Shown: one piece after another, positions 6,736-7,031 of the stretch
How positions within the stretch are numbered: position 1 is the first letter of the stretch
Layout: every line of letters begins with the position of its first letter
Assembly: GCF_024502345.1 (NCBI RefSeq)
Contig: NZ_JALDNN010000001.1
Origin: Escherichia coli
GTDB lineage: Bacteria > Pseudomonadota > Gammaproteobacteria > Enterobacterales > Enterobacteriaceae
DNA length: 64,000 nt
Strand: one strand, 5' to 3'
Notes under the pieces: generated by a model
Databases searched by the model: none
The model's input: only the letters and a program-made list of their open reading frames with translations
What the model was told of the DNA's origin: nothing
Made by a program: the position numbers and the translations under genes

Positions 6736-6812
6736 TGGTTGCGGGGGCCGGATTTGAACCGACGACCTTCGGGTTATGAGCCCGACGAGCTACCAGGCTG
6801 CTCCACCCCGCG
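6736..6812 (-). tRNA. metV: Initiator tRNA-fMet (CAU), copy 1 of 3
   Basis: Reverse complement reads CGCGGGGTGGAGCAGCCTGGTAGCTCGTCGGGCTCATAACCCGAAGGTCGTCGGTTCAAATCCGGCCCCCGCAACCA, the E. coli initiator tRNA with encoded CCA; which of metZ/W/V each copy is cannot be resolved from sequence. Confidence 0.95.
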
Positions 6813-6844
6813 TCACCGTACTGCTTTATTTCATTAAATTTGAT

Positions 6845-6921
6845 TGGTTGCGGGGGCCGGATTTGAACCGACGACCTTCGGGTTATGAGCCCGACGAGCT
6901 ACCAGGCTGCTCCACCCCGCG
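6845..6921 (-). tRNA. metW: Initiator tRNA-fMet (CAU), copy 2 of 3
   Basis: Identical 77-nt sequence to copy 1. Confidence 0.95.
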
Positions 6922-6954
6922 TCACCGTACTGCTTTACTTCATCAAATTTTAAT

Positions 6955-7031
6955 TGGTTGCGGGGGCCGGATTTGAACCGACGACCTTCGGGTTATGAGC
7001 CCGACGAGCTACCAGGCTGCTCCACCCCGCG
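6955..7031 (-). tRNA. metZ: Initiator tRNA-fMet (CAU), copy 3 of 3
   Basis: Identical 77-nt sequence to copy 1. Confidence 0.95.

Follow-up and report, generated by a model that had tools for sequence, protein, structure and literature searches.

An ordinary metZWV operon between amiC and mltA of Escherichia coli: an old array of three initiator tRNA genes whose spacers point to concerted evolution

Characterisation of the metZWV operon of Escherichia coli goes back to the early 1990s. In strain K-12, metZ, metW and metV lie at 63.5 min and encode three identical copies of tRNAfMet1, and metY at a separate locus encodes tRNAfMet2, which carries A46 in K-12 (PMC3017606). The three genes are co-transcribed as a single operon from a mapped transcription start, the level of tRNAfMet tracks gene copy number, and deletion of metZWV results in slow growth and cold sensitivity (PMC3017606); growth defects upon loss of the operon have also been described in a second study (PMC11480407). 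The deletion further loosens the fidelity of initiation, allowing non-initiator tRNAs to start translation (PMC3017606, PMC11480407, PMC5393177). According to the statement in PMC9981150 that cites Samhita 2014, loss of copies is a disadvantage in rich media and an advantage in poor ones. We analysed a 64-kb stretch of E. coli DNA (the window) in which an earlier note, made from the letters alone, had pointed out a tandem tRNA array. That note proposed that initiator tRNA dosage affects the capacity for translation initiation, in agreement with the published deletion and copy-number work (PMC3017606, PMC11480407, PMC9981150).

ARAGORN analysis of the window revealed exactly three tRNA genes, all of them tRNA-Met(CAT) on the minus strand. 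These were assigned as the promoter-proximal metZ (6955..7031), the middle gene metW (6845..6921) and the distal metV (6736..6812), each a 77-nt tRNAfMet1 gene with encoded CCA and each scoring 61.4 bits against Rfam RF00005 (gathering score 29). On the same strand, spacer 1 (6922..6954, 33 nt, AU-rich, ATTAAAATTTGATGAAGTAAAGCAGTACGGTGA) lies between metZ and metW and spacer 2 (6813..6844, 32 nt, ATCAAATTTAATGAAATAAAGCAGTACGGTGA) between metW and metV, giving unit periods of 110 and 109, respectively. Comparison of the three 77-mers revealed no differences, an identity that cannot have originated by chance, and the two spacers differ by three substitutions and one indel (~88% identity). The sequence of spacer 1 was unchanged in every E. 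coli examined, and the spacer is presumably removed from the precursor during processing. The earlier note had described three identical tandem 77-nt copies with a periodicity of about 109 bp and near-identical spacers of 32-33 bp. ARAGORN and alignment confirmed its coordinates and copy length, Tandem Repeats Finder returned the same period (6732-7033, period 109, 2.8 copies, 97% matches, score 576), and the spacers are as it described them; the minus strand and the identity with metZWV were absent from it.

The ARAGORN label "tRNA-Met, anticodon CAT" would fit an initiator, an elongator tRNA-Met and a tRNA-Ile2 (CAU anticodon modified to lysidine) alike, and the three possibilities were distinguished by the sequence marks of the tRNA itself. 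The cloverleaf is the minimum-free-energy fold (-30.3 kcal/mol), with the anticodon CAT at position 35. Position 1:72 is a C1 x A72 mismatch without a Watson-Crick pair, and the Rfam alignment likewise gives a non-standard first acceptor pair. Formylation of the tRNA and its rejection by EF-Tu are determined by such a 1:72 mismatch. The anticodon stem contains three consecutive G:C pairs (G29, G30 and G31 with C39, C40 and C41), a triplet with a role in P-site selection (PMC3017606), and 11:24 is the purine:pyrimidine pair A11:U24. Position 46 is G in all three copies. The 77-nt gene is identical to the copy annotated at the metZWV locus of K-12 MG1655, and it exactly matches the sequence of E. 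coli tRNAfMet1. A Watson-Crick 1:72 pair and an anticodon stem lacking the three G:C pairs, which would mark elongator tRNA-Met or tRNA-Ile2(CAU), were absent from the window copies. The initiator marks, together with the position of the genes at the published metZWV locus, refute the elongator and tRNA-Ile2 identities, to which we give practically no chance. As the earlier note had stated, the genes are, to judge from their sequence, initiator tRNA genes, and they are of the fMet1 type. Formylation by Fmt, binding of IF2 and entry into the P-site would be expected from their identity to the characterised E. coli tRNAfMet1.

The array is flanked by two genes of the plus strand. The gene amiC (5409..6662; Pfam Amidase_3 and AMIN) is convergent with the tRNA operon, its start at 5409 being taken from the RefSeq annotation of the homologous region within an ORF that opens at 5319, and mltA (7240..8337; RefSeq annotation; Pfam MltA and 3D) is divergent from the metZWV promoter. 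The same layout of amiC, three tRNA-Met genes and mltA is found in the RefSeq annotation of homologous E. coli regions, including that of K-12 MG1655. In addition, the knockout primers TGAAAACGCGAGCGGAGTATAGTGCGCATCCACGGA and CAGAAACAAAAAAACACCCGTTAGGGTGTTCAATAAT used for metZWV (PMC3017606, PMC5393177) match the window exactly on either side of the array.

A promoter with a short leader was read on the minus strand (7032..7082) from the sequence, its conservation across genera and the literature. It comprises an A-tract (7082-7075) upstream of the -35 element TTGCAT (7072-7067), a 16-nt spacer to the -10 element TATAGT (7050-7045), the GC-rich discriminator GCGCATC (7044-7038) and the six-base leader CACGGA (7037-7032). 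These blocks are kept in 17 Enterobacterales lineages from Escherichia to Xenorhabdus, in which the surrounding sequence is not kept, and mutations at or adjoining the -10 box are promoter-down mutations that lower tRNAfMet1 levels (PMC3017606). A generic sigma-70 scan did not detect the metZWV promoter, because its -35 element TTGCAT fits the consensus at only three of six bases. Beyond metV, a terminator scan found an intrinsic terminator (6700..6729, minus strand), which consists of a hairpin (6729-6710, GAACACCC-TAAC-GGGTGTT) followed by a T-run, and a similar hairpin and T-run follow the last tRNA gene in most other genera examined. One conserved promoter and one terminator, as read from the DNA, are consistent with co-transcription of the three genes.

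On this basis the following course of expression is proposed. A single sigma-70 promoter, in which the A-tract upstream and the GC-rich discriminator are features typical of stable-RNA promoters, would drive the operon, and transcription would start a few bases before metZ, run through metW and metV and end at the intrinsic terminator just short of the end of amiC. The precursor would then be cleaved within the AU-rich spacers, the 5' ends matured by RNase P and the 3' ends trimmed to the encoded CCA, the processing enzymes being those generally expected for tRNA operons of E. coli. Each transcript would thus yield three tRNAfMet1 molecules, which would make up most of the initiator tRNA of the cell, and the three copies would act as a dosage device. 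Recombination between copies, either gene conversion or unequal crossing-over, probably keeps the copies identical and the spacers alike, and the same process may occasionally generate alleles of one, two or four copies. The array is almost certainly the chromosomal metZWV operon of an Escherichia coli-type genome in its usual form, with a single promoter, a terminator, a dosage role and copies maintained by recombination. The operon as such is already known, and the array is real but ordinary.

Comparison with K-12 supports this assignment at the level of single positions. K-12 metZWV shares with the window the three identical tRNAfMet1 genes, the order of these genes and their strand with respect to amiC and mltA, the promoter core, the leader, spacer 1 and the terminator. 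Between the window and K-12 MG1655, 571 of 577 positions of the amiC-mltA intergenic region are identical; the differences are five substitutions and one indel, three of the six fall in spacer 2, and none lies in the tRNA genes, the promoter core or the terminator stem. Neither the spacer 1-metW-spacer 2 segment of the window nor its metV-metW junction has an exact match among 5,426 complete RefSeq E. coli genomes, the best matches carrying one mismatch. The closest of these genomes shows 98.9% identity over the first 25 kb, and the nearest are O55:H7/O157:H7 strains, with which the window is collinear; IS insertions were not detected. The window may come from a Shigella or from an E. coli lineage that these genomes do not represent.

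The earlier note had attributed the identical copies to "recent or concerted amplification", and recent amplification was examined through the distribution of the array. A query composed of spacer 2, the middle tRNA gene and spacer 1, which can be fully covered only if at least three copies are present, was covered to at least 80% in 5,002 of the 5,426 complete E. coli genomes (~92%). A pattern scan with one genome per species identified arrays of at least three copies in 33 species representatives of Enterobacterales, among them members of Citrobacter, Enterobacter, Raoultella, Pluralibacter, Serratia, Pectobacterium, Edwardsiella, Xenorhabdus, Pantoea, Mixta and Tatumella. The tRNA sequence is identical in nearly all 33, and the copy number is three except in Tatumella, which has four. 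At all 33 loci the array adjoins amiC or mltA, and at 20 it adjoins both; at the remaining loci the end of the locus is reached or other DNA lies in between. The triple array is old and orthologous across Enterobacterales. If one initiator tRNA gene had been amplified recently and in this strain alone, identical copies with spacers that are 88% alike would be accounted for, and a four-copy allele with a duplicated spacer 2 unit demonstrates that new amplifications do occur. However, the array and its spacer 1 are shared by K-12, the same locus holds at least three copies in most E. coli, and the same flanks accompany triple arrays from Citrobacter to Serratia, Pectobacterium and Edwardsiella. 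Recent amplification is ruled out by these conservation data, and we accord it scarcely any probability; on this point the earlier note has to be corrected from a recent amplification to an ancient array kept uniform by concerted evolution.

The other half of that statement, concerted change, was assessed on 40 spacers from 20 genus-level lineages. The mean identity of the two spacers within one genome was 0.87, compared with 0.63-0.64 for same-position spacers between lineages and 0.55 for a shuffled control, which upholds the concerted part of the earlier claim. The closest spacer was the paralogue from the same genome in 27 of 40 cases, and the spacers of one genome change in length jointly, over a range from 28-35 nt to 50 nt. 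Among close genera the orthologous spacers are at times more alike than the paralogous ones, as for spacer 1 of Escherichia and Citrobacter amalonaticus (0.97) and for the orthologous spacers of Enterobacter and Leclercia (1.00); homogenisation is therefore slow or partial. The spacer pattern is the one that homogenisation through gene conversion or unequal crossing-over would leave. The likeness within genomes could instead reflect a shared constraint on processing signals, since in all genera the spacers end on their 3' side in ACGGA or ACGGTGA, much like the pre-metZ leader CACGGA, suggesting a constrained RNase P context, and a difference at the start of the spacers (ATT in spacer 1, ATC in spacer 2) is kept across several genera. 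Constraint alone, however, would also hold spacers alike between genera, where the observed 0.63 is close to the shuffled level, and it sits poorly with lengths that change together within genomes. We thus regard constraint in place of recombination as unlikely and retain homogenisation as the preferred explanation.

The earlier note also expected the array to be prone to copy-number change, and natural alleles are in line with this. With copy counts taken as the number of genomes with at least 80% query coverage, the per-record counts of places being blurred by 32-nt partial matches and by the joining of pieces, such coverage was reached by the junction query in 5,194 of the complete E. coli genomes and by the three-copy query in 5,002, corresponding to about 192 genomes (~3.5%) with two copies and about 232 (~4%) with one copy or none. 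A query for the one-copy allele returned 226 genomes, a mixture of one-copy and two-copy arrays owing to the joining of pieces, and this number was left out of the counts. Four copies were present in at least one E. coli genome. Strains N18-04097, 99-3165 and OkiPb01695 exemplify one, two and four copies, respectively. The total of initiator tRNA genes per genome has a median of 4 and a range of 1-8 (21,173 places in 5,425 genomes), in keeping with these counts. The four-copy array has its spacers in the order 1, 2, 2, and two-copy arrays retain either spacer 1 or spacer 2; this spacer content is what would be expected from unequal recombination between identical 77-nt copies, and alleles of one, two and four copies are found among complete genomes with the recombination-like spacer content anticipated for such an array.

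Tandem repeats can also be mis-assembled, and the three-copy state of the window could in principle be an expansion or a collapse of this kind. The "complete" assembly of E. coli ST648 (NZ_CP008697.1) has no metZWV array and carries "n" exactly at its place (3990-4010), meaning that the array was lost in assembly, and fewer than three copies are seen in ~8% of assemblies, some of whose one-copy and zero-copy cases may be artefacts. For the window, however, a set of three copies in which spacer 1 precedes spacer 2 is the norm of the species, and spacers 1 and 2 differ, so that the copies are anchored by unique sequence. An assembly artefact in the window was set aside on the strength of the normal copy number and the distinct spacers, and we consider it very improbable; the three copies are taken as genuine.

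A further proposal is that the ~8% of complete E. coli genomes with other copy numbers represent real, recurrent recombination events sorted by niche. If so, natural selection would favour fewer initiator genes where habitats are poor or growth is slow and more of them in rich habitats, and the array would be a natural, reversible control on the capacity and fidelity of translation initiation. We hold this proposal to be doubtful. A rough population figure for metZWV copy-number variants in E. coli is now available.

The 3' end of metV is also a site at which genomes diverge. In about one third of complete E. coli genomes the homology to the window stops at query positions 328-336 (window 6727-6735), directly past the metV 3' end, and foreign DNA follows. 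In ATCC 25922 a type VI secretion island abuts metV and a different hairpin replaces the native terminator; in the window this insertion site is unoccupied. As a separate observation, the copies are not always identical: in ATCC 25922 (9122-9308) the D-loop change C17A is present in the first two copies and absent from the third, and 83 of the 5,426 genomes contain an exact copy with C17A. A single-base change in metW of Nissle 1917 has been described (2026 preprint).

Several features elsewhere in the window were recorded in passing. The intergenic region between mltA and tcdA (8338-8575) measures 238 nt, versus 76 nt in OSUCMP42NDM, and the extra ~160 nt contain REP-like palindromes between inverted GGGTGAGGG/CCTCACCC arms, within which an Rfam ES036 (CssrF) match was found (8459-8501, 46.5 bits). 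In E. coli 2013C-4465 a copy with 81% similarity separates barA from gudD, and in its sequence the insert looks like a mobile intergenic element of the REP/BIME type. The sRNAs GcvB (11517-11722, minus strand, 199 bits) and CsrB (29903-30262, plus strand, 380 bits) are placed as expected for E. coli, beside gcvA and syd, respectively. The interval from eno to queE contains only one ORF in the window, of 313 aa and with a TPM domain (47834-48775, minus strand), as against a LemA gene and three TPM-domain genes in E. coli 2013C-4465; homology is lost at 50040-50620 as well. The eno-queE region is variable.

As a discovery the array carries little weight, the effects of metZWV dosage on growth, cold sensitivity and start-site fidelity having been published already. 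Like the window genes, metY (upstream of nusA-infB) encodes an initiator tRNA of almost identical sequence, but it is a single gene with A46 in K-12 in place of the G46 of the window copies; ARAGORN did not find metY in the 64-kb window. The arrays of other Enterobacterales have in common with the window the identical 77-nt tRNA and the amiC/mltA synteny. Most lineages examined also share the promoter blocks and have a terminator hairpin behind the final gene, whereas the spacers are lineage-specific in sequence and length (28-50 nt). Beyond metZWV, other tandem tRNA gene arrays and rRNA operons undergo concerted evolution. In these systems, and probably in the window, identical repeated stable-RNA genes stay uniform through recombination, and their copy number is linked to growth rate (PMC9981150). 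The metZWV array differs in its tiny size, about 300 bp of DNA, which is devoted to a single tRNA species.
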